49,001 bases of DNA from Candidatus Methylomirabilota bacterium (GTDB lineage Bacteria; Methylomirabilota; Methylomirabilia; Rokubacteriales; CSP1-6): the NCBI GenBank assembly GCA_046734515.1, contig JBKPRI010000269.1, forward strand, positions 1 to 49,001. Reading direction: 5' to 3'. The translations under genes and the position numbers were made by a program. The notes beneath the pieces are model-generated. The model was not told the DNA's origin. It ran no database searches and was given only the letters and a program-made list of their open reading frames with translations. Below are positions 3,350 through 49,001 of the stretch, one piece after another; positions within the stretch are counted from its first letter, which is position 1; every line of letters begins with the position of its first letter.

Positions 3350-4024
3350 ATGTACAGCTCAGCGATGCTTCCCGTGCTCGACAGCGCGATGCCCGTTCGA
3401 CGCGACACCACCGCCGCGCGCGTCGACCCCGACCGTGAGCTTCTTGCCGCGCTCCAGCGGCAAGATCCGGCGGCGGCCGAGCTCCTGGTCGCCCGGTACG
3501 CCGACCGGGCCTATCGCCTGGCCGTCGGGATCACGCGCAACCCGCGGGATGCCGAGGAAGCCGTGAACGACGCGTTCTGGAGCGTCGTTCGCAGGATCGA
3601 GACCTTCAGGGGCGACTCTGCGCTGGCGTCATGGATCTACCGCATCGTCGCCAACGCGGCCTACCTGAAGATTCGTCGGCAGGCGCGCCGGGGCGATGAG
3701 ATCCCGCTGGACGACGTTTTGCCGGCCTTCGACGAGGACGGCCGCCATGTCGGCCCGCTGCACGACTGGTCGAGCAGCGTCGACGACCCGGCCGTGCAGA
3801 TGCGGCTGCGCGAGGCGCTGCAGACGTCGATCGACGAGCTGCCGCCGGACTATCGTGCGGTCTTCGTCCTCCACGACGTGGAGGGCATGCTCCTGAGCGA
3901 GGTCGCGAGCTCGCTCGGCATCACGGTGGCGGCCGCCAAGGCCCGCTCGCACCGCGCAAGGCTCCTTCTCCGCAAGCGTCTCTCGGCGTTCATGGAAGAC
4001 GCCGCGCTGGCGCTCACGGCGTGA
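3350..4024 (+). CDS. ECF-type RNA polymerase sigma-70 family factor
   Basis: Region 2 is AEEAVNDAFWSVVRRIETFRGDSALASWIYRIVANAAYLKIRRQ. Region 4 is ELPPDYRAVFVLHDVEGMLLSEVASSLGITVAAAKARSHRARLLLRKRL. AGGAGG at 3337-3342 lies 7 nt before the ATG at 3350. Confidence 0.85.
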   Translation: MYSSAMLPVLDSAMPVRRDTTAARVDPDRELLAALQRQDPAAAELLVARYADRAYRLAVGITRNPRDAEEAVNDAFWSVVRRIETFRGDSALASWIYRIVANAAYLKIRRQARRGDEIPLDDVLPAFDEDGRHVGPLHDWSSSVDDPAVQMRLREALQTSIDELPPDYRAVFVLHDVEGMLLSEVASSLGITVAAAKARSHRARLLLRKRLSAFMEDAALALTA

Positions 4025-6864: not shown

Positions 6865-9684
6865 TCAGCCCAGCGCTTTCAGCAGCGCCCGAGCCGACAC
6901 CAGATCCGCCGTCTCGAAGCCTTCGGTGAACCTGCGCAGGACGGGCGCGAGGATCGCCCGCGCCCTGATCCGTCGCTCACGCCGCCACAGACGCGCGAGA
7001 CTCATCGCCGCACGGAGCTCCCACGCGAGAACGCCGTGTCTGTGTGCGTGGTCGATGGCCTGCTCGAACTGCGCTTCCGCCTCCTTCGATGCGCCCTCTC
7101 GCGCGAGTAGCTCGCCCCTCACGCGGAGGAGCTCCGGCCAGGACCACTGCTCCTCCGTCACCTCGCAGCGTGCGAAGGCCTCCGCGATCAGCCGCTGAGC
7201 GTCGGCGGTGCGGCCGGCCGCGCCGAGACCATCGGCGAGCGCCGCCAGAAAGCCGGTGTAGTGAAAGAAGTACCGGCCCTCGCCGAGCTGTTCGAAGGCG
7301 GGCCGGACGAGCCGGCCGTAGCCGTCGGCGTCGCCACGCTTCACCAGCAACACCCCCTGCAGACAGCGACCGACGGCGTGCCATGCCACACTTCCGTGGC
7401 GGCTCGTGACATCGAGCAGCCGCGTCACCGAGCCGTCCAGCGCGCCGAGGTCGCCGGTGTACAGGGCAATCGCCGAGGCCGCTTCGGCGAGCGCGAAACA
7501 CAGCGAATGATGATGACCGGTCGCCTCGCCTTCGGCCACGGCCTGATGGGCCAGCTCGACCGCCCGCGCAGATGCCCCCTGCAGCCACACGACATGCGTC
7601 AGCGTGTTGAGCGCCAGCACCCGCTGGTCGAAGAGGAATCGCATCGTTTGCGAGCGGTAGGTCACCGGGCGCGGCTGGCGCTCCAGCATGCGCTCGATGT
7701 GGCGCCGCGCGGACTCCTGATCGCCGATGTAATGCAGGGACGCTCCGATCAGGCGGTCGGCGATCGCCTGATCGTCGGCATTCGGCCGCCGCGCCGCAAT
7801 GCCGGCGAAGCGCTGCGCGAGGGCCAGCCCCATCCGTCCTGAGCCGGTCTGGTTCCGGCACGCATACTGTCCCCAGATCGCGCGCAAGCGGTACTCGTCG
7901 TCATCGAGGCCTTCTGCCATGTCGAGGAGCGTCGTCCAGAGCGTGTCGATCTCGGGACGCGGCCCGCGCACATGAAGGGTCGACATGGCGAGCGCGGCCT
8001 GGAGCTTCAGCGCAAAGCGGCCCTCCACCGGAGCGCCGGTCTCGGCTGCGCGCTGGACCCGCTCAAAGCTCTCGTTCAGCAGCGACAGCTCCAGCCAGAG
8101 TGGCACCGCTGCGATCGTCAGCGCAGTGCCGAGCGTTGCGTCGCCGCCCGGCGCGAACGCCCAATCGAGCGCGGCGCGCACGTCGTCGAGCGTGTGGGCG
8201 TACGCGGCCAGCCACTCCGCCGTCGGCCGCGTGGGCCAGTCAGCCTCGGCCGTCTCCATCATGCCGCGGAAGTACGACGCGTGCCGGGCCAGCGCGACCT
8301 GGAGCTCCCCCGCCTCCCCGAGACGCTCGCGCGCGTAGGCGCGCGTGGTCTCCAGCAGGCGATAGCGCGGGGCACCGCCGGCGACGTGCGCGACGATGAG
8401 CGAGCGGCTCACCAGGCTCGCCACGCCGTCCGCCGCGGCCGCCTCGGGAAGCTCAGCGCTCGCGACGATCGCGCACGCGGCCTCCACCGAGAAGCTTCCC
8501 GCGAAGACGCCGAGCCGCCGCAGGACGATCCGCTCGGGCTCGGACAGGAGCTCGTGGCTCCAGTCGAGCGTGGCGCGCAGGGTCTGGTGGCGGGCGAGCG
8601 CCGTGCGCTTGCCGGTGGTGAGCAGCCGGAACCGGTCGTCGAGCCGCGCGGAGATGCCCTCGACACCCAGGGCCGCCACGCGAGCGGCAGCCAGCTCGAT
8701 GGCGAGCGGGATACCGTCGAGGCGGCGGCAGATGGCGGCGACCGTCGCGGCGTGCCGGCGATCCGACATCGCCACCGCTTCCACGGCGGCGGCGCGCGTG
8801 CTGAACAGCTGGACGGCGCCGTGGCGCAGCACGTCGTCGGCGTCGAGGTTGTCCTCGGCGGGGACCTCCAGCGATGGGACGCGATAGATGTGCTCTCCCG
8901 CGGTCCCCAGCGGCTCGCGGCTGGTCGCGAGCACGACCGTGCGCGGGCCCGTGCTGAGCAGCGCCGCGGCCATGTGCGCGGCCGCGTCGATCACGTGCTC
9001 GCAGTTGTCCAGCACCAGCAGGAGCTGCCGGTCGGCGACGGCGGCCGCGACGCGCTCGGGCGTCACCGTCGCGCTGCCCAGCGGCAGACCGAGCGCGGCC
9101 GCGACCGTCACGGCTACCAGGCTTCCATCGGTCAGCGGCGCGAGCTCGGCCAGCCAGACGCCGTCGGAAAACCGCTCGAGGATTCGGCGCGCGACTTCGA
9201 GTCCCAGGCGCGTCTTGCCAACTCCGCCTGAGCCCGTGAGGGTGACGAGCCGATGCGCCGTGGCCAGCTCCGTCACCGCCTGCACGGCGGGCGCGCGGCC
9301 GATAAGCTCTGACACTTCCACCGGCAGATTCGTGGACGCCGTGAGGCGGGGCGACGCGCTGGGGTCGCGGATCACCCCCGTGAACTGATACCCACGGCCG
9401 TGGACCGTGCGGATCAGGTGCCGGTCGGCGCCGAGGACCTTCCGCAGGGCCGAGATCTGGATCTCGAGGTTGTTCTCCTCGACGACCCGGTCAGGCCAGA
9501 TTCGACGCAGCAGCTCGTCCTTGCTGAGCACCGCACCGCCTCCGTCGAGCAGGACGAGCAGGGTGTCGAAGGCACGGTCGCCGAGGTCGATCCGGCGGCC
9601 TTCTTCAAAGAATTCACGACGTTGCCGATCGATCCGGAAGCGACCGAACTCGATCACCCCCGGCCGATTCGTCGCCGTCGCCAT
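6865..9684 (-). CDS. one-component STAND regulator, paralog 3 (wHTH + NB-ARC-like P-loop NTPase + TPR-like)
   Basis: 939-aa ORF with [79 protein letters not shown] and [11 protein letters not shown]. Confidence 0.85.
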
Positions 9685-10618: not shown

Positions 10619-10670
10619 CCGCTGCATCGCTCGACGCCCGGACGGACTCTCAAGGCGAGAGGAGCGAACC

Positions 10671-11084
10671 ATGAGCTTCGAGAAGATCCTGTACACGGCG
10701 AAAGCACACACCACGGGCGGCCGGGAGGGTGGCGCCTCCCGCAGCGACGACGGCCGGCTCGACGTCAAGATCTCGCCGCCCGGCTCCGGCGCCGGCACCA
10801 ACCCCGAGCAGCTCTTCGCGGCGGGCTGGTCGACGTGCTTCCTCTCGGCGATCAAGGTCGTGGCCGCCAGGAAGCGGATCGCGCTGCCGCCTGACGTGGC
10901 CGTCGACGCCGAGGTCGACCTCGGCACGGCGCAGGGCAACTACGGCCTCGCGGCGCGCCTGAATGTCAGCCTGCCGGGCCTCGAGCGCCAGGCGGCGCAG
11001 GCCCTCGTGGACGCCGCGCACCAAGTGTGCCCGTACTCCCGCGCGACGCGCGGCAACATCGACGTCACCATGACCGTGGTCTGA
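10671..11084 (+). CDS. ohr: organic hydroperoxide resistance protein (OsmC/Ohr family)
   Basis: 137 aa. YTAKAHTTGGREG, NPEQLFAAGWSTCFLSA and HQVCPYSRATRGNIDV carry the two Ohr-type catalytic Cys motifs. GAGAGGAG lies before the ATG. Confidence 0.85.
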   Translation: MSFEKILYTAKAHTTGGREGGASRSDDGRLDVKISPPGSGAGTNPEQLFAAGWSTCFLSAIKVVAARKRIALPPDVAVDAEVDLGTAQGNYGLAARLNVSLPGLERQAAQALVDAAHQVCPYSRATRGNIDVTMTVV

Positions 11085-11092
11085 GAGAGAGG

Positions 11093-11680
11093 ATGGAGAT
11101 GAAGGCCAAGAGGCTCCCGGCAGTCGTGATGATCGCGGTATCGCTCGCTGTCTCGACCCTCATCCTCCTGGGTGCCAGGGCTGTCACCGCGCAGGACACT
11201 GGGCAGGCCAAGTACACCGTGCGGGTGCCAAACGGGCTCGCGTTCTCCGAGTTCAAGGGCTACGAGAGCTGGCAGACGATCTCCATCAGTCATAGTGAAA
11301 AGCTGCTCGCGGTGACCCTCGGCAACCCCGAGATGATCAAGGCCTTCCAGTCCGGCGTTCCCGGCAACGGCAAGCCGTTCCCCGACGGCGCCAAGATGGC
11401 GAAGATCCACTGGAACCCGAAGAAGCACGAGACCTTTGCCACGACGGCGGTGCCGGCCAGCCTGCACGACGTCGACTTCATGGTGAAGGACAGCAAGCGG
11501 TTCGCGGACAGCGGCGGCTGGGGCTGGGCCGCGTTCAAGTACGACGCCGCGTCCGACACCTTCAAGCCCTTCACCACGACCGACACACCGCCGCAGGGGA
11601 ACGACGCCAAGTGCGGGCTCGCCTGCCACACGATCGTGAAGAACAGGGATTACGTGTTCACGGAATACGGAAAGCGCTGA
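11093..11680 (+). CDS. cytochrome P460 family protein (secreted, c-type haem CxxCH)
   Basis: After an internal ATG (11093 or 11099) comes the signal peptide MKAKRLPAVVMIAVSLAVSTLILLGARAVTAQ. This is followed by YTVRVPNGLAFSEFKGYESWQ, PGNGKPFPDGAKMAKIHW, FMVKDSKRFADSGGWGWAAF and the haem motif CGLACH near the C-terminus. The upstream part of the track ORF overlaps ohr. Confidence 0.75.
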   Translation: MEMKAKRLPAVVMIAVSLAVSTLILLGARAVTAQDTGQAKYTVRVPNGLAFSEFKGYESWQTISISHSEKLLAVTLGNPEMIKAFQSGVPGNGKPFPDGAKMAKIHWNPKKHETFATTAVPASLHDVDFMVKDSKRFADSGGWGWAAFKYDAASDTFKPFTTTDTPPQGNDAKCGLACHTIVKNRDYVFTEYGKR

Positions 11681-11693
11681 CCGAGGCGCCACC

Positions 11694-13010
11694 ATGCGAA
11701 CGAGGGTTCTCGTCGTGGCGGCCGCCCTCGCGGCCGCCATCGCTGGCTGCAGCAGAGGCGGGGCCGCGCCGCCTCCCTCCGCCCCGGCGGTCAAGGTCGA
11801 GGTCGTCGTCGAGCAGGACGTGCCGATCAGCCGCGAGTACGTCGGGAGTCTGGTCGGCTACATCAACGCGCAGATCCGCGCCCGCGTCAGCGGGCACCTC
11901 GTGAGCCAGAAGTACACCGAGGGAGCGCTGGTCAAGAGCGGTGACGTGCTCTTCCAGGTCGACCCGCGGCCCTTCCAGACCGCGGTCGACCAGGCCGACG
12001 CGAAGCTTCGCCTCGCCGAGTCACAGCTGAGTCAGTCGAAGGCCCAGGTCAGCGCCGCCGAGGCCCAGATCGAGCAGACGCAAGCGAAGGTCGCACAGGA
12101 CGAAGCCCAGGTGACGCGGGCAGCGGCGACGCAGCGGCAGACCGAGCTCGACGTCAACCGCTACACGCCGCTGGCCCAGCGCGGCTCCGTCAGCCAGCAG
12201 GAGCTCGACAACGCGGTGCAAAACAATCTCGCCAATCTCGCGGCGGTGGAGGCCGCGCGGGCGGCCGTCCTGAACTCGCGGGCCAGCGTGTCGCAGGCGC
12301 GGGCCGCGCTCGAGAAGGCGCACGCCGACGTGAAAACCCAGGAGGCGAACATCGCCGCCGCGCGCGCCGCGGTGGCCGAGGCCCGGCTGAACCTCGGCTA
12401 CACGACGATCCTGTCGCCCATCACGGGCGTGGCCGGCTTCCGCGGGGCGAACATCGGTGACTTCGTGGGACCGACCGACGCCACCCCGCTCACGACGGTC
12501 TCGCAGGTCGATCCCATCTACGCGGAGTTCCCGGTGAGCGAGCAACGGGCCCTCGCGGTGTTCCGGCGGTGGGAGGCTGATCCTCGCGCGCGTCGCGACA
12601 TCGAGCTCGAGATGATCCTGGCCGACGGCACCCCCTACGCCCATCGCGGCCGCGCGGCCGCGCTCGACCGGCAGGTCGACGTGACCACCGGCACCGTGCT
12701 CGGGCGCGGCGTCTTTCCGAATCCCGGCAACCTGCTGCGTCCCGGCCAGTATGCAAAGGTCCGCGCGGTCGTCGAGGTTCAGAAGGGCGCGCTCCTCGTT
12801 CCCCAGCGGGCCGTCAACGACCTGCAGGGCGTGCACCAAATCGCGGTCGTCCGTGCCGATGACACGGTCGACGTGCGGACAGTCAAGACCGATACGCGCG
12901 TCGGCTCGATGTGGATCATCGCGGAGGGATTGAAGCCGGGCGAGCGCGTGGTCGTCGAGGGTGGCGACCGGGTGCGAAGCGGCCAGAAAGTCCGCGTGGC
13001 GGGGAAGTAG
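11694..13010 (+). CDS. RND efflux periplasmic adaptor (membrane fusion protein), lipoprotein
   Basis: Lipobox AIAGCS, a coiled-coil hairpin region (AQVSAAEAQIEQTQAKVAQDEAQ), barrel motifs (ILSPITGV) and an MFP-typical C-terminus. It lies 13 nt after the P460 stop and 3 nt before the RND permease. Confidence 0.9.
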   Translation: MRTRVLVVAAALAAAIAGCSRGGAAPPPSAPAVKVEVVVEQDVPISREYVGSLVGYINAQIRARVSGHLVSQKYTEGALVKSGDVLFQVDPRPFQTAVDQADAKLRLAESQLSQSKAQVSAAEAQIEQTQAKVAQDEAQVTRAAATQRQTELDVNRYTPLAQRGSVSQQELDNAVQNNLANLAAVEAARAAVLNSRASVSQARAALEKAHADVKTQEANIAAARAAVAEARLNLGYTTILSPITGVAGFRGANIGDFVGPTDATPLTTVSQVDPIYAEFPVSEQRALAVFRRWEADPRARRDIELEMILADGTPYAHRGRAAALDRQVDVTTGTVLGRGVFPNPGNLLRPGQYAKVRAVVEVQKGALLVPQRAVNDLQGVHQIAVVRADDTVDVRTVKTDTRVGSMWIIAEGLKPGERVVVEGGDRVRSGQKVRVAGK

Positions 13011-39198: not shown

Positions 39199-40248
39199 AT
39201 GCCCGTTGCGACCGTCGCAAACTTTTCCGCGCGGGGGGTTGTGAGCGTCTCGGCCAGCCGCGGTGTCGACATCGGTCGTCTCCTTCGAGATTCGGGGCTG
39301 GATGAGAAGTCCCTCGAGACACCCGGGGCTCACCTCCCGCTCGATGGGGTCATCAACCTGTGGGAACGGGCGCGCAGGAGCACGAAGGACGAGAACCTCC
39401 CGCTCCATGTCGCGGAGTTCCTGCCCGTCGGGACCTACAAGACATGGGATTTGTTCCTGGCGACGGCACCGACCGTGGGCGATGCCCTGGACAAGATCGC
39501 CACATTCAACGGATGGATGGACGACACGTTCCGACTCACGCTCAGGAAGCGACGCGACCAGGTCGCCATCGAATACACGAACGTGGTCGATTCCGAGTGC
39601 CAGCCGCCGGAATACCTCGAGTTCAACTTCGCGCGGGCCTTGCTGCGGGCCCGAGTCACGACGGGTATGAACATTCGGCCCGCCGAGATGCACTTCCGGC
39701 ATTCACCGCCGAGAAATATCGCGGAACACTACCGTATTTTCCAGGCTCCCATTCGGTTTCGGCAGCCCGCGACCCAGGCCATCTTCGATCCGGCTGTCCT
39801 CCGCATCCCGCAGCTCTTCGCGGACGCGGCCACGTGCGAGCTGCTGGAACACTACATCCAAGCCAGACTCAACAAGGCTCGCGCCTACGACGAGCTCGCG
39901 GTGGCGGCACGCCGTTCGCTGGCTCGCTTGAATTCGTCGGAGACCGCGACCGTCAGCGCCACCGCGCGAGAGCTCGGGATGAGCCGTCGGGGGCTGCAGC
40001 GAAGGCTGGCGGAGCGGGGCACGTCGTTCCGTGAGCTCTTTCGCTCGGCGCGCTACAACCTTGCGATGAGGCTCCTGAACCGGCACGACCTCACCATCGC
40101 CGAAGCCGCTGAACTCCTCGGCTTCTCCGAGGTGAGCGCGTTCAGCCGTGCGTTCAAGCAATGGACCGGCATGAGCCCCCAGGCCCACCGGCACCAATTA
40201 CGGAAGACCCAGGCGCCCTCCGTGAGGCAGCGAAAACCCTCCCGCTGA
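39199..40248 (+). CDS. AraC family transcriptional regulator
   Basis: The C-terminal double HTH includes ELGMSRRGLQRRL and TIAEAAELLGFSEVSAFSRAFKQWTGMSP. An N-terminal ligand-binding-type domain is present. Confidence 0.85.
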   Translation: MPVATVANFSARGVVSVSASRGVDIGRLLRDSGLDEKSLETPGAHLPLDGVINLWERARRSTKDENLPLHVAEFLPVGTYKTWDLFLATAPTVGDALDKIATFNGWMDDTFRLTLRKRRDQVAIEYTNVVDSECQPPEYLEFNFARALLRARVTTGMNIRPAEMHFRHSPPRNIAEHYRIFQAPIRFRQPATQAIFDPAVLRIPQLFADAATCELLEHYIQARLNKARAYDELAVAARRSLARLNSSETATVSATARELGMSRRGLQRRLAERGTSFRELFRSARYNLAMRLLNRHDLTIAEAAELLGFSEVSAFSRAFKQWTGMSPQAHRHQLRKTQAPSVRQRKPSR

Positions 40249-40319: not shown

Positions 40320-40721
40320 GTGACCGCCACGACGAAACCTCGCAAGGCCGCCCGGTTGTCCGCCACCGTGCTGGTCGTCGACGACGATCACTCTCTACGA
40401 GCCATGGCCCGCCGCCTGCTGGAGTCGCACGGGTACCGAGTCCTGGACGCCGGCGATTCGGCCGCGGCGGAGCGAATCGCCAAGCTGTACGTAGGGCCCA
40501 TCCACGCCCTCCTCATCGAGCTCGATCTCTCCGGCGTCAGTGGGGTCGCCCTCGCCGACCGCCTTCGCTCACTGCGTCCGGAGCCGAGGATGCTGTTCAT
40601 GTCGCGCCACGCGCACCGCGAGTTGCTCGCGGAGGGACGCATCGGCGCCCACCTGCCCTTCATCCAGAAACCCTTCAAGGGTCGTGAGCTGATGGCGCGG
40701 CTGTCGTCATTGGCAAAGTAA
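40320..40721 (+). CDS. stand-alone response regulator receiver domain protein (CheY-like)
   Basis: VLVVDDDHSLR is the acidic pocket, LLIELDLSG the phospho-acceptor Asp region, LFMSRH follows and FIQKPF carries the conserved Lys. There is no output domain and no histidine kinase in the window. The GTG start at 40320 is uncertain. Confidence 0.75.
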   Translation: MTATTKPRKAARLSATVLVVDDDHSLRAMARRLLESHGYRVLDAGDSAAAERIAKLYVGPIHALLIELDLSGVSGVALADRLRSLRPEPRMLFMSRHAHRELLAEGRIGAHLPFIQKPFKGRELMARLSSLAK

Positions 40722-42087: not shown

Positions 42088-43590
42088 TCAGCGGCGGCGC
42101 TTGAGCAGCCAGTCGATCGCGCCACTGCCATCGTCGGCGTCGGCGCCACTCTCGACTCGTGGCGTCCGTTCCGCGGGGACTCGGCGTTCGATCGACGCCG
42201 ACGACTCGCCGGTGGCCGGGAGCTCGGTCGGACGACGGCGATCGGCCCGGGGCGATGATTCGACTGGGGCACGCGGCGCGATCGGCGCCGCTGACTGGAC
42301 GGCGCGCGGGCGACGGTCGATCGTCGACCGAGCACTCGCGGACGGCGCGATCGGCGGCAGAATCATGGGCGGCGGAGCGGCCGGCGATTCGGGCGCGACC
42401 ACCGCAGCTCGTGGTTCCGCGGGTGGCCTGTTCTCGACCGCGCCGGCTTCGGACGGCGCCGTCAGCTCGCGAGGGGCCGAGAGCTGCGCCGCCGCCTCGG
42501 ATGACCGCAGAACCTCCGGCTCGATCGGAACGGCCGTGACCGCCGGCGGCGTTACACCGCGGTAGAGCTGCGCTGCGATGTGATCGAGGCCGGCAATCCA
42601 CACGATGGCGGCCGTGACGCCGGCCATGGCGACGGCCGCGGTCATGCGAAGCGCGATCGGCCGCTGACGGCGGCGCACGCGGCGACGGGCATTCCCCCGC
42701 CCCTTCACCAGGCGAGGGGGATTCTCCGGCGCGGTGACGGCTGCCGCCGCACCCCAGATGTCATTGATCATCACCGTGATGTCCGGATAGCGGCGCTCGG
42801 GCCGTGGCTCGAGTGCCGTCTCGATGATCCGCTGGATGGTCGGTGACAGGGGCGGCGTCACCGCGACAGCGCCCGGAGTCTGCTCCCCTTTGCCGGCCGT
42901 CAGGACGTGCCGGAGCAGCATCCCCAGCGCGTACACGTCGGTGGCCTCAGTCGCTTCGCCGCCTTCGAGCTGTTCCGGCGCGAGATAGGACGACGGGAAC
43001 GGCTCGCGGAAGCGCCGGCCGATCGGGGTGCGGTACGCGGCGGCCAGCTCGGCTCCGACGACGCTGATCCGTTCACCGTCGTTCAGCATGAGCACCGTGT
43101 CCGGGCCCAGCCGGCCGTGAACGAGGCCGTTGTGATGAAGCGCCTCGAGCGCCTCGCCGACCCGGATGGCCACGCGCAGCCCCGTGGGCACGGCGAGGGC
43201 GCCGCCGCCGTCGATGACTTCACCCAGCGTGGCGCCCTCGACCCGCTCGAGCGCGACGAAGAGCTGGCCGGTCTCGATCGCGCCACACTCGTAGACGCGC
43301 TGCACCCCGCGGAGCACCTGGGCCGGTGTCGCCAGCGCGAGGGATCGCGCGCGTACCGCCGCCACGAACTTCGTGTCACGCGCGAATTCGTCTCGCAGCA
43401 CTTTCAGCGTGATCGGCCGATGGTGGCGGATGTCCTCGGCGCTGTAGACGACCACGTCGGCGTCGACCGACGTGATGGCCTTCACCCGGTATCGCGCGTT
43501 AATGAGCGAGCCGATGAGACTCGAATTGAACTCCGGCACGGCCGCCGGCTGAGGCGCGGCGCCGACCGTCACGTCAGTCGTCACCGGCAA
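42088..43590 (-). CDS. membrane-anchored Hanks-type kinase-like protein, predicted pseudokinase
   Basis: The kinase fold is recognisable: ITLKVL (VAIK Lys), YLAPEQ (APE), DVYALG, RPERRYP. The catalytic motifs are lost. The Gly-rich loop reads ITSVDADVVVY, HRDLKPxN reads VHGRLGPDTV and DFG reads VVGAEL. One TM follows (IALRMTAAVAMAGVTAAIVWIAGL), then a Pro/Ala/Arg/Ser-rich low-complexity tail. It uses a TTG start. Confidence 0.75.
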   Translation of the reverse strand: MPVTTDVTVGAAPQPAAVPEFNSSLIGSLINARYRVKAITSVDADVVVYSAEDIRHHRPITLKVLRDEFARDTKFVAAVRARSLALATPAQVLRGVQRVYECGAIETGQLFVALERVEGATLGEVIDGGGALAVPTGLRVAIRVGEALEALHHNGLVHGRLGPDTVLMLNDGERISVVGAELAAAYRTPIGRRFREPFPSSYLAPEQLEGGEATEATDVYALGMLLRHVLTAGKGEQTPGAVAVTPPLSPTIQRIIETALEPRPERRYPDITVMINDIWGAAAAVTAPENPPRLVKGRGNARRRVRRRQRPIALRMTAAVAMAGVTAAIVWIAGLDHIAAQLYRGVTPPAVTAVPIEPEVLRSSEAAAQLSAPRELTAPSEAGAVENRPPAEPRAAVVAPESPAAPPPMILPPIAPSASARSTIDRRPRAVQSAAPIAPRAPVESSPRADRRRPTELPATGESSASIERRVPAERTPRVESGADADDGSGAIDWLLKRRR

Positions 43591-43817
43591 TGGTTCACGA
43601 TCGAGGGCACCGCCGCGGGAGTTGAAGGCGATCGAGCGAGAGTCGAAGCCAAGCTCGCGACCGACATTCTGGACGCATCATGAGACCACTCCCGATCCAC
43701 GTCAAGAGCGGAATCACCTAGAAAAAACTCTTGCCGAAACCCCGACGATGTCCTACACCTAGGTCAGCCGGTGAAACATTGCGTATCGATGAGACGCTGA
43801 CGCCGGGAGCTCCTCAG

Positions 43818-45293
43818 ATGCAAAAGCTCGTCGACCTCGCGCGGCGCACGCTCGAGGTCGACCGGAAAGCCGCCGACGCCGCCCGCCGCGACAGTCCCAA
43901 GACGGCAAACGCCTCGCCCGACGCCACCGAATCGGAGATCTGCGCGCACTTCATCGCGCTCGCCCGCGAGCGACGCGAGGGCTGCGAGGGGCGTCTGGCC
44001 CGGCTGGAGCTCGATCGCAAGGCGACCGCGGCGAAGATCGACGTGAGGCAGACCCGCGATGCTTTCGCGCGCCTGCTGACGCCCGTCGAGCCGGGCCTCG
44101 AGAAGCTCCGATCGGACCACACCGCGGTGCTCTATCAGGCCAAGGAGAACGAGGCGCGCGCCCTGAAGCACCTGCGATGGTTCCAGAACAAGCACGGCCT
44201 TCACCACCGGGCCGCGTCATACCCGGGCTCGCCGCTGTACCACTTCGCCATCGTGGCCGGGCTGGCGCTGGTCGAGTGGATGTCGCTCGCGGCGTTCTAC
44301 GCGGAGGGCAGCGACTTCGGTCTCCTCGGCGGCGTGCTGATCGCGATGACGCTCTCCGTCGTCAACATCAGTCTCGCCATCCTCGCCGGTGGGCTCCTGC
44401 GGTACGTGAATCACCGGAGCGGTCGCCGGAAAGCGCTCGCCTTGACGGGGGTCGCGGTGCTGTACGCCGGTTTTCTCCTCGTGACGCTCGCCGCCGCGCA
44501 CTATCGGGTCGCGACCGGCGACATCGCGCAGTCACAGCCGGAGGTGTCCGGACCGGCCGGCGCGGCGCTGCCGCCTCAGGTCGCGGCGGACTTCGATCAG
44601 TGGCGGGCCGCGCGGCTGGCCTGGCAGCGCTTCTCCCGCAATCCGGTCGGATTCGAGGACGTCTTTTCCTGGATCCTGGTCGTGCTGGCCGGCGTCTTTG
44701 GCATCTTCGCCTCGTACAAGGGCTACCGGATCGACGACCCGTATCCGGGCTACGGCGAGCTCGATCGAGAGCTGAACGCACGGCGGGCCTACTACGAAGG
44801 CCGCAAGGCCGAGTACTGCCGCCTCATCGACCAGGTCTTCGACCGCATCGTCGACGAGCAGGCGCGGCTGTTCGCGGACGTGAAGGCGAACATCGAATAC
44901 TATCAACAGCTCGTCGCCAAGAGCGACGACGAGCGCCGGGCCTTCGCGCACGAGACGGCCGAGCTCCAGGACGCGTGCAACCTTCTGCTGAAGCGCTATC
45001 GGGAGGCCAACGCGCGCGCACGCACCTCGCCGACGCCCTACTACTTCAAGGACACCTTCGCCTTCGATGGCGATCTCTTGCGGCCGCCCGAGGCGATCTC
45101 GGCGTACGACGCGCGGTTGCTGGCGTCCTACGAGAGCGCGATGAAGGACTTCAGCGACATCGCCCGGCAGAACGACGCGACCGTCCAGAACCTCCGGACC
45201 GGCGAGATCCGCCGCCGCGACTACTACTTCAACAAGCTCGAGCGCGAGGTTCGCGAACGGCTCGTCCGGGAAGCGTGGGAGATCAAGAGCTGA
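43818..45293 (+). CDS. cassette gene A: 4-TM membrane protein flanked by long helical/coiled-coil cytoplasmic regions
   Basis: ATG at 43818 with GGGAG 8 nt upstream; the track ORF starts at a TTG at 43731. There are four hydrophobic segments: LYHFAIVAGLALVEWMSLAAFY, FGLLGGVLIAMTLSVVNISLAILAGGLL, ALALTGVAVLYAGFLLVTLAAAHY and VFSWILVVLAGVFGIFASY. The N- and C-terminal regions are charged and heptad-like. I recognise no family. Confidence 0.7.
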   Translation: MQKLVDLARRTLEVDRKAADAARRDSPKTANASPDATESEICAHFIALARERREGCEGRLARLELDRKATAAKIDVRQTRDAFARLLTPVEPGLEKLRSDHTAVLYQAKENEARALKHLRWFQNKHGLHHRAASYPGSPLYHFAIVAGLALVEWMSLAAFYAEGSDFGLLGGVLIAMTLSVVNISLAILAGGLLRYVNHRSGRRKALALTGVAVLYAGFLLVTLAAAHYRVATGDIAQSQPEVSGPAGAALPPQVAADFDQWRAARLAWQRFSRNPVGFEDVFSWILVVLAGVFGIFASYKGYRIDDPYPGYGELDRELNARRAYYEGRKAEYCRLIDQVFDRIVDEQARLFADVKANIEYYQQLVAKSDDERRAFAHETAELQDACNLLLKRYREANARARTSPTPYYFKDTFAFDGDLLRPPEAISAYDARLLASYESAMKDFSDIARQNDATVQNLRTGEIRRRDYYFNKLEREVRERLVREAWEIKS

Positions 45294-45297
45294 CCCT

Positions 45298-46116
45298 GTG
45301 CCGCTGAGCAGCCTGGATCGGCGGGGCATCTTCATCCTGAGCGGTGTCGGCGCCTTCGCGGCAGTGCTGCTGGCGACCGTCGTCGGCGTCACGTGGAGCC
45401 GGCCCATCATCGGCCCCGACAACTGCGTGTACCGGGACCGGCGCTTTCTCAGCCGGGCCCCGACCGACCAGACGGTGGTGCTGGTCGACCAGTCGGAGGC
45501 GCTGACCGAGACGCATCGGCGATTCGCACTGACCTTCCTCAAGGACTATGTCGCCGACGACACACGATTCGCCGTGCGCTCACGGATCGCCCTGTTCACC
45601 TTCAGCAAGGCGACCTTCGAGCTCCGGAGCGGCCCGCGCCTGCGCCCGAGCTCGGATCTGTGCCGGCCGCCGTCGCGGGGGAACGACCTCTACGAGAACA
45701 ACCGGAAGATCACCAAGGACTTCCACCAGCGCTTCCTGGTCCCGGTCACCGCCACGCTCGAGCAGAGCCTCACCACCGAGGTCGGCGAGCAATCACCGAT
45801 CCTCGAGACGCTGCAGCTCATCTCGCGCTCGCAGGAGATCGACGACGGGGGCCGCAAGACCTTGATCATCGTCTCCGACATGCTGCAGCACACCGCCGCG
45901 TTCAATCACTACGGGCCCGCCCGCGGCTACGATGACTTCGTGCGATCCGGCTTCGCCGCCGACGTGAAGGCGGACTTCCGGGACTGGAACGTCATCGTGA
46001 TCTATCTGCGCCGGTACCAGGATCGCCAGCTGCAGCAGGCCGCGCATATCGACTTCTGGCAGCGCTATTTCCACGAGGCCGGCGCGAAGATCATCCGCTG
46101 GGCCGGAGTCGACTGA
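45298..46116 (+). CDS. cassette gene B: N-terminally membrane-anchored alpha/beta domain protein, vWA-like
   Basis: The GTG start lies 4 nt after the gene A stop. The TM is IFILSGVGAFAAVLLATVVGV. TVVLVDQSEALTE is MIDAS-like (DxSxA), and SPILETLQLIS and TLIIVSDMLQH fit the vWA/Rossmann-like strand-helix pattern. The assignment is tentative. Confidence 0.6.
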   Translation: MPLSSLDRRGIFILSGVGAFAAVLLATVVGVTWSRPIIGPDNCVYRDRRFLSRAPTDQTVVLVDQSEALTETHRRFALTFLKDYVADDTRFAVRSRIALFTFSKATFELRSGPRLRPSSDLCRPPSRGNDLYENNRKITKDFHQRFLVPVTATLEQSLTTEVGEQSPILETLQLISRSQEIDDGGRKTLIIVSDMLQHTAAFNHYGPARGYDDFVRSGFAADVKADFRDWNVIVIYLRRYQDRQLQQAAHIDFWQRYFHEAGAKIIRWAGVD

Positions 46117-46121
46117 GCCAC

Positions 46122-47810
46122 GTGACCCGCCTGGTGGCGAGTCTGCCGTCCACGTTCCTCGGCTTTATCGCTCTCGGGGTCGGCGTGATCCTGACGTTCA
46201 GCGCATGGTCCGCCGGGGGGCCGGGCGGTTCGCGACACTGGATCATGACCGCGCTGGTCGTGGGGCTGATGTTCGTGTACGGACTCCTCCTCTGGCTCAG
46301 GTCGAGGACGGCGTACGCCGCCGAGACCGATGGCGAGACGTTCTATTACCTCGGCTTCATCTACACGCTCGCCACCCTGGTCGCCACGTTCGCGCCGCTG
46401 CTCAACGCGCCGGAGCGAGTCGAGAGCCGCCACGTGCTGGGCCTGTTCGGGGTGGGCCTCATCACGACGTTCGTCGGCCTGGCCGGGCGGATTGTCTTCG
46501 CGCAGACCGTCGCGGGGCCGGCCCGGCCAGAGGACGACGCGCGGCGCCTCGGCGACGCCTACACGGACGCGGCGCGCGCCATCGAGCGGAGCACCGTTCG
46601 CATCGTGCACGCCCAGCAGCGCGCCGAGGGACATCTGAACGAGTCGTATTCCGGTGCGGTCGAGACGATCCGGAACGTCTCCGATCGCGTGACGCAGCAG
46701 CTCGATGCGCTGAACGCGCAGGTCCTGCGGCAGTTCGCGGCGATGATCGAGCGCGTCAGCGCCGACGCCGAATCCGCCTTCGCGGAGGTGCGCACTCGCG
46801 CGGTCCAGCAGATCGACGCGGCGTGCCGGGACGCGGCCAAGACGCACGACACGGCCAGGGAGCAGATCGAGAGCCTGGCGGCCGGAACGGCCGGCGCCGT
46901 CCGGGCCGTCGGCGAGCAGGTCGTCCGGGACGTCGCCCGGATGGCGCGGGAATCGGCGGCGGAGCTCGCCGAGTTCGTGCGCCAGACGAACGGCAGCGTG
47001 AGCACGGCCCTGCAGCAGTTCGAGACACGCGTCGACGCGCTTCGCCTGCCCTCCGGGGACATCGGCGAGAAGCTGACCGCGGTGTTGACCGAGCTCGCGG
47101 AGCGGGCAGAGCGGCTCCGGCGTACGACCGTCGACGTGGACGCCGCCTACGGTGAGCTCGAGGAGACGCTGGCCGGCGCGGTGAACGGCGCGCGAGACGG
47201 CGGCCGGGCCTTCAATGCCCTGGCCGTCTCGGCCGACGCGGCGACGTCAGCGGTGACGTCGGCCAACACGAACGTCGAGCAATTCGCCGCACACCTCAAG
47301 GAGCTCGGCGCCCTCGCTGCCGCGCTGGAACAGCTGCCGCAGGAGGGCGCCGGCATCATCGCAACCCTCGGTGACCTGCGCACGCACCTCGGCGAAGCCA
47401 ACCGCGCGTGGGCAGAGGTGGCCGGCGTGACCGACGACGCCAGCAAGTCGATGGCGCGCGCGGGCGCGGCCCTGACGTCGCTCGAGCACGGCACGCGCGC
47501 GGCGGAGCAGTCCGTGCGCACGTGGAGCGGCGGCCTGACGAACGCGGGCCTCGGACTGCACGCGCTGACCGAGGTGACCGAGCGTGTCGTGAAGCTTGGC
47601 CAGGACGCCGTGACCACCCAGGCCCAGCTCTCCGCGCAGATCTCGGGACCGCTCGTCGAGCAGCTGCGCCTCCACAGCGAGGCGGCCGGCGCGCTCGCGA
47701 GCCGGCTGCAGGAAGACCTGCAGGCGTCCGAGGAAGCCGTGCGCCGGGTCCACCATCACCTCATCGATGCCTCACGCTTCATTCTGAGCAAGGTCGAGTA
47801 TCGGCGGTGA
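46122..47810 (+). CDS. cassette gene C: 4-TM ExbB/MotA/TolQ-like stator-type protein with ~430-aa Ala-rich helical tail
   Basis: The GTG start lies 5 nt after the gene B stop. There are four N-terminal TMs. TM3 FYYLGFIYTLATLVATF and TM4 LGLFGVGLITTFVGLAGRIVF resemble, from memory, the ExbB signatures GLFGTVWGI and EALLATAIGLVAAIP with similar spacing. The remaining ~430 aa is predicted helical, with no catalytic motif visible. Confidence 0.6.
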   Translation: MTRLVASLPSTFLGFIALGVGVILTFSAWSAGGPGGSRHWIMTALVVGLMFVYGLLLWLRSRTAYAAETDGETFYYLGFIYTLATLVATFAPLLNAPERVESRHVLGLFGVGLITTFVGLAGRIVFAQTVAGPARPEDDARRLGDAYTDAARAIERSTVRIVHAQQRAEGHLNESYSGAVETIRNVSDRVTQQLDALNAQVLRQFAAMIERVSADAESAFAEVRTRAVQQIDAACRDAAKTHDTAREQIESLAAGTAGAVRAVGEQVVRDVARMARESAAELAEFVRQTNGSVSTALQQFETRVDALRLPSGDIGEKLTAVLTELAERAERLRRTTVDVDAAYGELEETLAGAVNGARDGGRAFNALAVSADAATSAVTSANTNVEQFAAHLKELGALAAALEQLPQEGAGIIATLGDLRTHLGEANRAWAEVAGVTDDASKSMARAGAALTSLEHGTRAAEQSVRTWSGGLTNAGLGLHALTEVTERVVKLGQDAVTTQAQLSAQISGPLVEQLRLHSEAAGALASRLQEDLQASEEAVRRVHHHLIDASRFILSKVEYRR

Positions 47811-48466
47811 TCCGCCGAGATCGCCTGGCCCGAAACCGCGACGTCGCGCTCACGACCCTGATCGATCTGCTCGTCCAGGTCATCTTCGTGCTGGCGCTGA
47901 TCCTGGTCTCCGCCGACGTGGGCGGCAACGAGTCGCGTGAGCGGGGCTGGGTGACGCCCGAGGCATGGAAGACGCTGATCAGCATCTTCGATGTCGATCC
48001 CCGGACGCTCCGCGAGGTCCCCGCGCAGGTGGCGGCCATCGAGGCCACCTACGGCAGGCTGCAAGACAATCTGAAAGCTTGCGACGCCAGGACCGGCGCC
48101 TGCGAAAGAAACGCCGGACGAGGTCCGGGGAACGCGCCGTGCCGCAATTCGGCGGGAGTCGAGATGGTGGTCGCCGAGGCGACGATCGATCACCACGGGC
48201 GGATCGTCGTGGCGCCCGGGCGCGACGCGGATCAGCTCGAGCAAGACCATCCGCTCGGCGCCGACGCGTTCGGCGTCCCGCTTTCCGCCGAGCGATTCGC
48301 CGCCGTCTTCCGCCGGTGGCGCGAGCACGGGCTGACGCATCAGCCTCCGTGCGCCTTCAAGGCGGACGTGCGCTACGATGCGCGCGCGCCGGCGGGCGAC
48401 TACGAGCCGGCGCGGCGCGCCATCGCCAGCTACTTCACGTTGTCGGCGTCCCCCAAGCGCTTCTGA
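47807..48466 (+). CDS. cassette gene D: ExbD/TolR/MotB-like single-TM protein with conserved TM Asp
   Basis: The GTG at 47807 overlaps the gene C stop (GTGA). A short basic N-terminus (IRRDRLARNR) is followed by DVALTTLIDLLVQVIFVLALILV, which resembles the ExbD/TolR TM (INVTPFIDVMLVLLIIFMV) including the Asp. The C-terminal domain has four Cys and an ExbD-like pattern (EATIDHHGRIVV...FKADVRYD). No OmpA-type peptidoglycan-binding motif is seen. Confidence 0.55.
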   Translation: MIRRDRLARNRDVALTTLIDLLVQVIFVLALILVSADVGGNESRERGWVTPEAWKTLISIFDVDPRTLREVPAQVAAIEATYGRLQDNLKACDARTGACERNAGRGPGNAPCRNSAGVEMVVAEATIDHHGRIVVAPGRDADQLEQDHPLGADAFGVPLSAERFAAVFRRWREHGLTHQPPCAFKADVRYDARAPAGDYEPARRAIASYFTLSASPKRF

Positions 48467-48477
48467 GCGCTGACCCC

Positions 48478-48735
48478 GTGTCGCCGCCGACGCGCCGCGA
48501 TCTCGCCGAACAGCTCACGGGACTCCTGAACGGCATCGACATCGCGATCCGTGTTCGGCGGCACGAATCCGCCACGCCCACGGGCGAGCCACCCTCGGAG
48601 ACCGATCGGCGCGACACGGGAATCCGCGAGGCGCTGGTCGCGGCGCTCCGGCGGCTGCGTCTCTCCTCGCCCCCTCAACTACTGAGCAACCACGCTCGAA
48701 CTCACCCGCGGGGCAAGTCCACTCGGACACAGTAG
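48478..48735 (+). CDS. cassette gene E (possible): small hypothetical protein
   Basis: The GTG lies 11 nt after the gene D stop. It encodes 85 aa, with high GC3 over roughly the first 60 codons and no recognisable motif. Confidence 0.3.
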   Translation: MSPPTRRDLAEQLTGLLNGIDIAIRVRRHESATPTGEPPSETDRRDTGIREALVAALRRLRLSSPPQLLSNHARTHPRGKSTRTQ

Positions 48736-48783
48736 CGCGCTGGGGCGAAGGACGGGCACCGCCGCAACGGGGTACAACAGGAC

Positions 48784-49001
48784 ATGCCCTACGACCACCT
48801 CGAGATCGAGGCCCGCTGGCAACGCTACTGGGACGCGCACGGGACGTTCCGCGCTACGCGCCGGAGCGGCCGGCCCAAGCGCTACGTCCTCGACATGTTC
48901 CCCTACCCGTCCGGCGTCGGTCTGCATGTCGGTCATCCCGAGGGGTACACCGCCACCGACATCATGGCGCGTGCCTGGCGCATGCGCGGCTACGACGTGC
49001 T
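48784..49001 (+). CDS. leuS: leucine--tRNA ligase, N-terminal part (runs off the right edge)
   Basis: [22 protein letters not shown]...[41 protein letters not shown], the classic LeuRS N-terminus with the HIGH motif (HVGH). There is no stop in the window, so it is absent from the ORF track. Confidence 0.9.

Follow-up and report, generated by a model that had tools for sequence, protein, structure and literature searches.

What kind of machine is encoded by a tightly packed set of membrane-protein genes that fits no named system is the question raised by the locus at 43818-48735 of the 49,001-nt stretch analyzed here (hereafter the window), which is derived from a Candidatus Methylomirabilota bacterium (GenBank assembly GCA_046734515.1, contig JBKPRI010000269.1) whose genome has a GC content of 69%. 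The initial annotation of this DNA, made from its letters alone, had described a cassette of four to five co-directional genes, here named A-E, that has a stator-like core and faces a divergent kinase-like gene, here named K, and it had pointed to the anti-phage Zorya modules as a lead. We found that genes A-B-C-D are a real set, which recurs across bacterial phyla, and that C and D very probably represent a pair of the MotA/ExbB type and the ExbD type, respectively. On balance, we favor the reading that A-D form a proton-driven motor module related to Zorya, in which C-D is the core and the function is envelope surveillance and signalling.

All four genes lie on the + strand. A (43818-45293) encodes a 491-aa protein with four transmembrane (TM) helices, B (45298-46116) a TM-anchored vWA protein, C (46122-47810) a candidate MotA/ExbB-superfamily channel subunit with a long tail, and D (47807-48466) a 219-aa ExbD/TolR-like protein. 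The gene coordinates given at first, including those of E, proved exact, and so did the junctions, which are +4 nt for A/B, +5 nt for B/C, −4 nt for C/D, where the D start codon overlaps the C stop codon in a GTGA, and +11 nt for D/E. The GC content at third codon positions (GC3) is 0.87-0.92 in A-D, a strong coding signal, while a possible TTG extension upstream of A (43731-43817) has a GC3 of only 0.45 and is non-coding; ATG 43818 was therefore retained as the start of A, in agreement with the earlier assignment. Hydropathy analysis counted four TM helices each in A and C, one each in B, D and K, and none in E. Based on the charge distribution and conserved cysteines, the C tail and both helical domains of A are predicted to be cytoplasmic, and the B vWA domain and the D ExbD-like domain to be periplasmic, since in B and D a basic N-terminus precedes the TM helix and conserved cysteines follow it.

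To what extent the four genes belong together can be read from their relatives. More than 200 close relatives of C, with 65-87% identity, were found, nearly all of them from soil metagenomes, and 14 species-representative genomes carry C, all of which belong to Candidatus Rokubacteria/Methylomirabilota. The order A-B-C-D is kept in 14/14 of these genomes. A metagenome scan yielded 80 further loci, 53 of which contain all four genes, and the order is again kept in every one of the 53; the start-stop overlap of C and D is kept in 37/37 loci. Co-conservation of the four genes in related genomes, on which the initial annotation had made its reading depend, was thus observed throughout. Beyond K and D, each genome examined has different flanks, and because the order is kept while both flanks vary, A-B-C-D is taken as the conserved unit, with K as a frequent companion. 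B is the best-conserved protein of the set, with 72-95% identity within Rokubacteria.

The assignment of C depends on its first quarter. The protein consists of a 4-TM domain (aa 1-128; 46122-46505) and an Ala-rich helical tail of about 430 aa, predicted to be cytoplasmic (aa 129-562; 46506-47807), with a conserved C-terminus, and its signature comprises Y75-Y-L-G78-F-I-Y-T82 in TM3 and G-L-I-T-T116-F-V-G119-L-A-G-R in TM4. Direct matches of C to curated models were weak, tail-only coiled-coil noise (SMC, JetC, tape-measure proteins and ZorA tails), among which the ZorA models gave E values of 0.0024-0.04 that were likewise confined to the tail, and searching the PDB sequences with C alone gave nothing meaningful. 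By using a profile of aa 1-143 in an exhaustive search (E ≤ 1e-3), 1416 representative proteins were retrieved. This superfamily carries the signature GDxFYYLGF(I/L)(F/Y)TL ... FG(I)AL.TT(I)VGLAGR, with Y75, G78, T82, T116 and G119 (window numbering) being invariant. Among 105 scanned members, 14 match Pfam MotA_ExbB (PF01618) and 42 match the PADLOC ZorA models (ZorA1). The best PF01618 match is P0465, which the aa 1-143 profile had found at an E value of 5.5e-11. At 32 bits, it is the one member of the 14 that exceeds the gathering score (22.9), and the matched region (residues 73-149, profile positions 50-126) spans the same helices.

Comparison of the superfamily profile with all PDB sequences placed two TolQ proteins at the top (E 0.1), in a register that sets Y76-x-G78-x-x-x-T82 on TolQ Y139-G141-T145 and T116 on TolQ T178; an hhalign comparison of C with E. 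coli TolQ/ExbB returned the same register (P = 0.0046). TolQ T145/T178 correspond to ExbB T148/T181, and these two threonines are established as lining the proton path in TolQ and ExbB. An equivalent part in the proton path is played by Thr147 and Ser184 of ZorA (PMC11946911). The placement of the C TM domain in the MotA/ExbB/TolQ channel superfamily, as had been proposed for it, is therefore supported by a transitive profile link, with P0465 above the Pfam gathering score and TolQ as the best PDB sequence match. The tail needs more caution. A helical tail of about 430 aa is present as annotated, while its reading as a single coiled coil is doubtful, as about 20 Gly/Pro positions that would break it are conserved, and a segmented helical domain seems more likely than one uninterrupted coiled coil. 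Separately, a large subgroup of C-like proteins (P0389-P0443) was noted, which are shorter, at about 220-400 aa, and have a nearly invariant motif DRLGDNFYYLGFIYTLASLSAAL and a basic 'LPRRRF..DMPD' N-terminus.

D shows the corresponding features of an axle subunit. It is laid out as a basic cytoplasmic N-terminus, a TM helix (47840-47914), two periplasmic helices and a C-terminal alpha/beta domain (aa 110-215; 48134-48451). The TM motif LTTLIDLLVQ contains Asp20 (47864-47866), which is invariant in 59 sequences, with one distant homologue having Glu at this position; Cys112 and Cys182 are invariant, and Cys92 and Cys99 nearly so. No direct match of D was found in Pfam at E ≤ 1 (PF02472 included), PADLOC, NCBIfam or PHROGs, nor in the PDB sequences, whether D was used alone or as a profile, and neither the ZorB nor the OmpA models of Pfam and PADLOC matched it. 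In hhalign comparisons with TolR/ExbD (P = 0.0079), D20 was aligned with TolR D23 and ExbD D25. An AlphaFold2 model has a pLDDT of about 90 in the C-terminal domain, and when this model was searched by Foldseek, PDB ranks 1-5 were all ExbD periplasmic domains (probability 0.77-0.95, E 0.07-0.22, target TM-score 0.49-0.67), with TolR at rank 14. Both the invariant TM Asp and the fold matches bear out the early description of D as ExbD/TolR-like.

An independent line of evidence was provided by cassettes outside Rokubacteria. Distant B homologues (47-59% identity) were found on metagenome contigs of about 54% GC, on which all four genes recur with their order unchanged and no kinase is present. 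In addition, tblastn against plasmids found adjacent homologues of A, B and C, again in the same order, in Rhizobium, Sinorhizobium, Microvirga, Paracoccus and Tistrella, and a homologue of A was present on 24 plasmids. For Paracoccus and Microvirga, homology was examined at the sequence level, and A, B and C match the respective proteins with E values from 3e-30 to 2e-12 (3e-30 and 2e-26 for the A homologues of the alphaproteobacterial plasmid cassettes); the other plasmids rest on tblastn matches and on four-gene layouts that agree with that of the cassette. The C homologues of the alphaproteobacterial cassettes match ZorA models, and one of them is annotated as a chemoreceptor, which fits the chemoreceptor-like tail of ZorA, a part of which resembles chemoreceptor signalling bundles (PMC11946911).

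The fourth gene of the alphaproteobacterial cassettes is of a different kind from D. It encodes an OmpA-family protein for which ZorB is the best PADLOC match in 7/7 cases (E 1.5e-27 to 2.6e-3), namely at 10667-11707 in locus L021, 11205-12242 in L027 and 11345-12319 in L024, and also in L025, L026, L028 and L029. These ZorB-like proteins have 313-467 aa and a TM helix with Glu (LT[VM]AE) rather than Asp; where D has its ExbD-fold domain, they have a periplasmic coiled coil that varies in length. As the position of the B-type subunit is thus taken by one of two different known stator-axle types, C-D receives independent support as a stator pair, and the Zorya lead of the initial annotation has gained strength. 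Three kinds of evidence carry the case for C-D, namely several independent weak signals that converge on the functional residues, one transitive link to Pfam that is solid, and the replacement of D by a ZorB-like protein.

These data also bear on the simplest alternative, in which unrelated membrane genes stand merely side by side and the likeness to a stator results from chance matches between hydrophobic helices. Such an explanation would account for the weak direct similarity scores. It is contradicted by the synteny data, in which 67 independent loci share one order and spacing and this order recurs across phyla; moreover, the matches fall in register on the functionally critical Thr, Thr and Asp, a remote C homologue passes Pfam's MotA_ExbB threshold, and a ZorB occupies the fourth position in Alphaproteobacteria. 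We therefore regard a chance assembly as hardly credible.

The distant cassettes also differ from those of Rokubacteria in their company. On the contigs of about 54% GC, the cassette is neighbored by PDDEXK_4, PIN and SNase genes, and the neighbors on plasmids include HipA, Phd/YefM toxin-antitoxin genes, a CHAT protease, DUF4041, insertion sequence (IS) elements and a recombinase. An SNase (thermonuclease) with a signal peptide or a TM anchor adjoins 7/10 of the non-Rokubacteria cassettes, either upstream and co-directional, downstream and co-directional, or downstream and convergent (7003-7632 on the − strand in L015, 5586-6161 in L016, 12993-13685 in L020, 12320-13063 on the − strand in L024, 12799-13455 on the − strand in L025, 12487-13176 in L028 and 6915-7580 in L029). 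One could therefore imagine an export or DNA-processing apparatus, whose motor energizes the release, positioning or activation of the exported SNase for scavenging extracellular DNA, remodelling biofilms or, on plasmids, entry exclusion, with the Rokubacteria form being derived through loss of the nuclease. A precedent of this kind is SiiAB, a MotAB-like pair cited among the 5:2 motors as serving type I secretion (PMC12204202). Against it, three plasmid cassettes have no adjacent SNase, no SNase was found in the window or near the cassettes of the 14 genome loci and 80 metagenome loci of Rokubacteria, and no secretin, outer-membrane channel or ABC component is linked; nor does the long cytoplasmic tail of C have an obvious role in export. 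This explanation is therefore considered very unlikely, and a Zorya-related motor module is kept as the preferred reading.

B consists of an N-terminal TM anchor (aa 10-33) and a vWA domain (aa 55-272). It has no match in Pfam, NCBIfam, PADLOC or PHROGs. Its AlphaFold2 model is of high quality (pLDDT 90.2, pTM 0.83), and the top 50 PDB matches in Foldseek were all vWA or integrin I-domains, with E values from 1.3e-4. Searching the models of B and D by Foldseek, a check suggested at the outset, has thus placed vWA/I-domains and ExbD on top, respectively, and confirmed B as the membrane-anchored vWA protein it had been taken for. The putative metal site is MIDAS-like and non-canonical, with D64-Q-S66-E67-A68, S166 and D194 as compared with DxSxS ... 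T ... D; S166 and D194 are invariant, and the site reads D-x-[ST]-D-x in Alphaproteobacteria. Cys122 is invariant and Cys43 is conserved. The TM helix contains no His or SHLS motif and no TM Asp.

A tethered vWA protein beside a motor brings to mind a Ton/Tol-type machine for envelope maintenance or force transduction that has no part in immunity, in which C-D, by pulling on or repositioning the vWA domain of B, or A, would exert an effect on peptidoglycan, on the outer membrane or on a periplasmic ligand, and the pseudokinase would report the state of the envelope. Indeed, a role as force transducers has been proposed for vWA proteins that are tethered to the inner membrane and encoded next to TolQR-like motors (PMC12204202), and the periplasmic domain of D is ExbD-like rather than OmpA/ZorB-like. 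The strong conservation of the cassette in Rokubacteria under purifying selection, its metabolic surroundings here, where no mobile-element marks are seen, and the lack of a nuclease partner in the Rokubacteria versions would all suit such a function. B itself fits it poorly, because the features that define the two published vWA-transducer families, an SHLS/His TM motif with a long linker and a TM Asp, are both missing from it, and its vWA domain starts about 20 residues past the TM helix and would therefore be unable to span the periplasm. Moreover, the cassette has no linked gene of the TonB, TolA, Pal or TolB type, it has different flanks in each genome examined, and outside Rokubacteria it is carried by plasmids, where its company consists of toxin-antitoxin genes, IS elements and nucleases. 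We thus hold an envelope machine of this type to be possible, if somewhat improbable, and continue with the motor module related to Zorya.

A is an orphan. A cytoplasmic helical N-domain (aa 1-142) is followed by the TM region (44253-44726) and a cytoplasmic C-domain (aa 304-491), and the four TM helices given by hydropathy agree with its description as a 4-TM protein between two long helical regions. Glu153 in TM1, Asn183 in TM2 and His199 are invariant across phyla. Two further stretches, A227-H-Y-R230 at the periplasmic end of TM3 and D307-P-Y-P-G311 just after TM4, are invariant as well, with Tyr229 and Tyr309 nearly so. Neither A alone nor its family profile matched anything in Pfam, NCBIfam, PADLOC, PHROGs or the PDB sequences, and a Pfam scan of 11 A-family members found no shared family. 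The possibility that A is a paralogue of C, so that A-B would be a second motor pair, was rejected, as phmmer detected no similarity and the B TM helix has no acidic residue.

How might such a module work? We propose that C-D would be the core of an inner-membrane 5:2 motor driven by the proton motive force, like MotAB, ExbBD, TolQR and ZorAB, in which several copies of C would surround a D dimer; both the 5:2 ratio and the rotation are suggested by analogy with the solved motors. Protons would pass from the periplasm via Thr82 and Thr116 of C to Asp20 of D, and protonation of Asp20 would turn C, together with its cytoplasmic tail, around D. The ExbD-fold domain of D and the membrane-held vWA domain of B could register a periplasmic or envelope event and thereby license proton flow. 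The cytoplasmic helical domains of A would be placed to meet the C tail, and A might thus read out the rotation of the tail. The output may be lineage-specific, with the pseudokinase acting as a scaffold in Rokubacteria and the exported SNase serving in Alphaproteobacteria and in the lineage of about 54% GC.

Several observations weigh against the proposal that A-D are a Zorya-related motor module. C has no direct match to PF01618 in a Pfam scan even at E ≤ 1, and it is without the cytoplasmic domain between TM helices that MotA, ExbB and ZorA possess. Taken singly, the links of C and D are weak (E 0.1 for TolQ, P of about 0.005-0.008 in hhalign, E 0.07-0.2 in Foldseek), and the curated models of Pfam, NCBIfam release 20, PADLOC 2.0 and PHROGs recognize neither A, B and D nor the TM domain of C. 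Because of the conserved Gly/Pro positions of the C tail, a continuous bundle of 60-70 nm like that of ZorA should not be assumed. No homologue of A was found in phage genomes. Finally, the Rokubacteria cassette is highly conserved, has no nuclease nearby and is located here among metabolic genes, which looks more like a housekeeping envelope function than like a typical patchy defence system.

What is sensed, and whether the role lies in defence or in the envelope, can be surmised from the architecture and the genomic context. A role in conflict or defence fits the plasmid and nuclease contexts, and the strong conservation and ordinary surroundings in Rokubacteria would suit a housekeeping role in the envelope. 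When all members of the family are considered together, the likeliest role appears to be defence against phage or other invading DNA, with less certainty for the Rokubacteria version. A bolder generalization, which is put forward tentatively and seems unlikely at present, would see A-B-C-D as an unrecognized class of proton-driven immune or surveillance machine, whose sensing and output take place at the membrane and in the periplasm through the vWA domain, A and often an exported nuclease, which intercepts phage or plasmid DNA before it reaches the cytoplasm, and in which the B-type subunit (ExbD- or ZorB-type) and the output module (nuclease or pseudokinase) are exchangeable.

As for the frequent companion, K (42088-43590, − strand) is a membrane-anchored Hanks-type protein, divergent from A, with a cytoplasmic kinase-like domain, a TM helix (aa 312-330) and a Pro/Ala-rich extracytoplasmic tail. 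The kinase fold is recognized by Pfam Pkinase (E 7e-9). In all orthologues the catalytic residues are replaced, with HRD changed to HG(R/Q) and DFG to VGAE, the catalytic/Mg-binding Asn is lost, and the Gly loop is absent. As the HRD Asp, the Asn, the DFG Asp and the Gly-rich loop are gone in every orthologue, K is a pseudokinase, and its early description as a divergent membrane pseudokinase holds across the orthologues. K is divergently adjacent in 12/14 genome loci, the other two being L005, where it is not found upstream, and L012, which ends at a contig edge, and it is present in 35/44 metagenome loci that have enough upstream sequence. One subclade of Rokubacteria and a sister group of lower GC content lack it. 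This indicates that K is a frequent but dispensable neighbor of the cassette.

In the divergent control region between K and A (43591-43817), which would serve both strands, alignment of the intergenic sequences revealed two promoter-like blocks, one per strand, that are conserved across 13 Rokubacteria species (43677-43765). The + strand block (43722-43765) comprises a −35-like TTGCCG (43731-43736), a 17-nt spacer and a −10-like TACACC (43754-43759), for which the consensus across species is TA(A/C)ACC, and a conserved GAGAAAAC precedes the TTGCCG block. On the − strand, TTGACG (43705-43700), a 17-nt spacer and CATGAT would serve K; a consensus scan recovered this promoter-like site, with 0.0 expected in shuffles. 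The initial annotation had also drawn attention to CACCTAG, of which there are indeed two copies (43715-43721 and 43756-43762). The repeat is absent from all 12 orthologous intergenic regions, and its candidacy as an operator was rejected.

On the other side of the cassette, E (48478-48735, + strand) is a doubtful 85-aa open reading frame between D and leuS. It has no family match in Pfam, PADLOC, NCBIfam or PHROGs, its GC3 of 0.79 is a weaker coding signal than that of A-D, and it was detectable by tblastn in only 2/14 genome loci. Owing to this rarity and weak coding signal, E was excluded as a fifth component and is probably not part of the cassette, so that, of the four to five genes first counted, A-D stand as one unit. 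The adjacent leuS does follow as described, starting at 48784 on the + strand, and this adjacency was found only in this window; since the flanks differ in other genomes, a linkage with leuS was rejected and the adjacency is considered incidental. No terminator-like site was found after D, between D and leuS, and an Rfam scan of 43000-49001 gave no match.

The ten nearest upstream genes were scanned and are metabolic or regulatory. Upstream of K lie a stand-alone response-regulator receiver protein (40320-40721) and an AraC-family regulator (39199-40248), neither of which is kept beside the cassette elsewhere. Farther away, three tandem paralogues on the − strand (403-3228, 4014-6842 and 6865-9684) encode proteins of 939-942 aa that are 48-60% mutually identical and begin with a winged-helix DNA-binding domain of the OmpR/PhoB type, after which comes a P-loop (GAGGIGKT). 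By these features, they look like a triple array of AfsR/SARP-type STAND transcriptional regulators.

To our knowledge, only a handful of classes of 5:2 ion-driven motors have been described, namely the flagellar, Ton, Tol, gliding/T9SS and Zorya motors. The cassette would add a widespread class, which is abundant among soil Rokubacteria and is also carried on plasmids of rhizobia and Paracoccus. It would also add a minimal core of the MotA type with a large tail fused to it, two types of the B-type subunit, ExbD-like and ZorB-like, in the same position of otherwise homologous cassettes, and two new obligate partner families, A and B, one of which has no detectable relatives. It would thus offer a natural experiment on how 5:2 motors are wired to different inputs and outputs. 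As cultured bacteria carry it, including R. johnstonii 3841 (on pRL11, RL_RS31080 to RL_RS31100), S. fredii NXT3 and P. yeei, its function is directly testable. If defence is indeed the role, Zorya-like immunity would be extended to membrane and periplasmic effectors by a system that the PADLOC and NCBIfam models now miss.

Comparison with described systems places the cassette close to several of them. No description of the gene set was found in the literature on Zorya type IV, on a Zorya-like system with a vWA protein or on MotAB-like defence cassettes, and a MotAB phylogeny paper does not cover its group; likewise, no characterized operon was matched in the profile searches or in the structure searches with B and D, so that the cassette remains outside the named systems, as had been stated at first. 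Papers up to 2026 describe three Zorya subtypes (PMC11890865, PMC11946911), with ZorC and ZorD as the effectors of type I, ZorE of type II, and ZorF (DUF3348) and ZorG (DUF2894) of type III (PMC11890865). Like Zorya, the cassette combines a MotA/ExbB-like TM core that carries a cytoplasmic helical tail of several hundred residues (C) with an adjacent, overlapping B-type gene that has a TM acidic residue (D); its remote C homologues match ZorA, and the alphaproteobacterial fourth gene is ZorB-like and located near nucleases and defence-type genes. Unlike Zorya, D in the window has an ExbD-fold domain instead of a peptidoglycan-binding OmpA domain and does not match ZorB, and C has four closely spaced TM helices, no membrane-proximal cytoplasmic domain and a tail with Gly/Pro breaks. 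The partners differ too, being the membrane proteins A and B, with the nuclease of the relatives exported rather than cytosolic. None of ZorC, ZorD, ZorE, ZorF or ZorG was found among A-E, in Pfam and PADLOC searches, or among the ten upstream genes scanned.

The likeness to the Ton/Tol systems lies in the proton path and the axle, as C Thr82/Thr116 align with TolQ Thr145/Thr178, equivalent to ExbB Thr148/Thr181, and LIDLL of D aligns with TolR LLDVL and ExbD FIDVM, next to the shared periplasmic ExbD fold and the gene order of A-type subunit followed by B-type subunit. In contrast, C has no ExbB/TolQ cytoplasmic domain and bears the tail of about 430 aa, D, at 219 aa, has extra periplasmic helices and four Cys, and the Pfam models for ExbD and MotA_ExbB detect neither D nor C. 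TonB, TolA, a TonB-dependent receptor, Pal, TolB and CpoB were not found in the cassette or among the ten upstream genes, the part of the window that was scanned for them; within this scope, the early statement that neither Zorya effectors nor TonB or Pal partners accompany the cassette was upheld. The flagellar stators MotA-MotB and PomA-PomB share with C-D a four-TM A-type subunit, a single-TM B-type subunit with an essential acidic residue, and overlapping genes; C is without their torque-generating cytoplasmic TM2-TM3 loop and D without their OmpA domain, and no flagellar genes were found nearby.

A further comparison is with the predicted inner-membrane-tethered periplasmic vWA 'force transducers' encoded next to TolQR-like motors (Mol Biol Evol 2025, PMC12204202). 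B resembles them as a single-pass periplasmic vWA protein encoded beside a MotA/TolQ-type motor, which suggests that its vWA domain is a motor-coupled periplasmic module. The first of the two families is characterized by a TM motif of the SHLS/His kind, a disordered linker of great length and an accompanying TPR gene, none of which B has. Members of the second carry a TM Asp and replace TolR, whereas B has no TM Asp and is accompanied by a separate D; neither family has a counterpart of gene A. Because the gene set thus departs from Zorya, from Ton/Tol and from the vWA transducers in features that define each of them, we set it apart as a variant of the 5:2-type motor that has two new partner families and an exchangeable axle.

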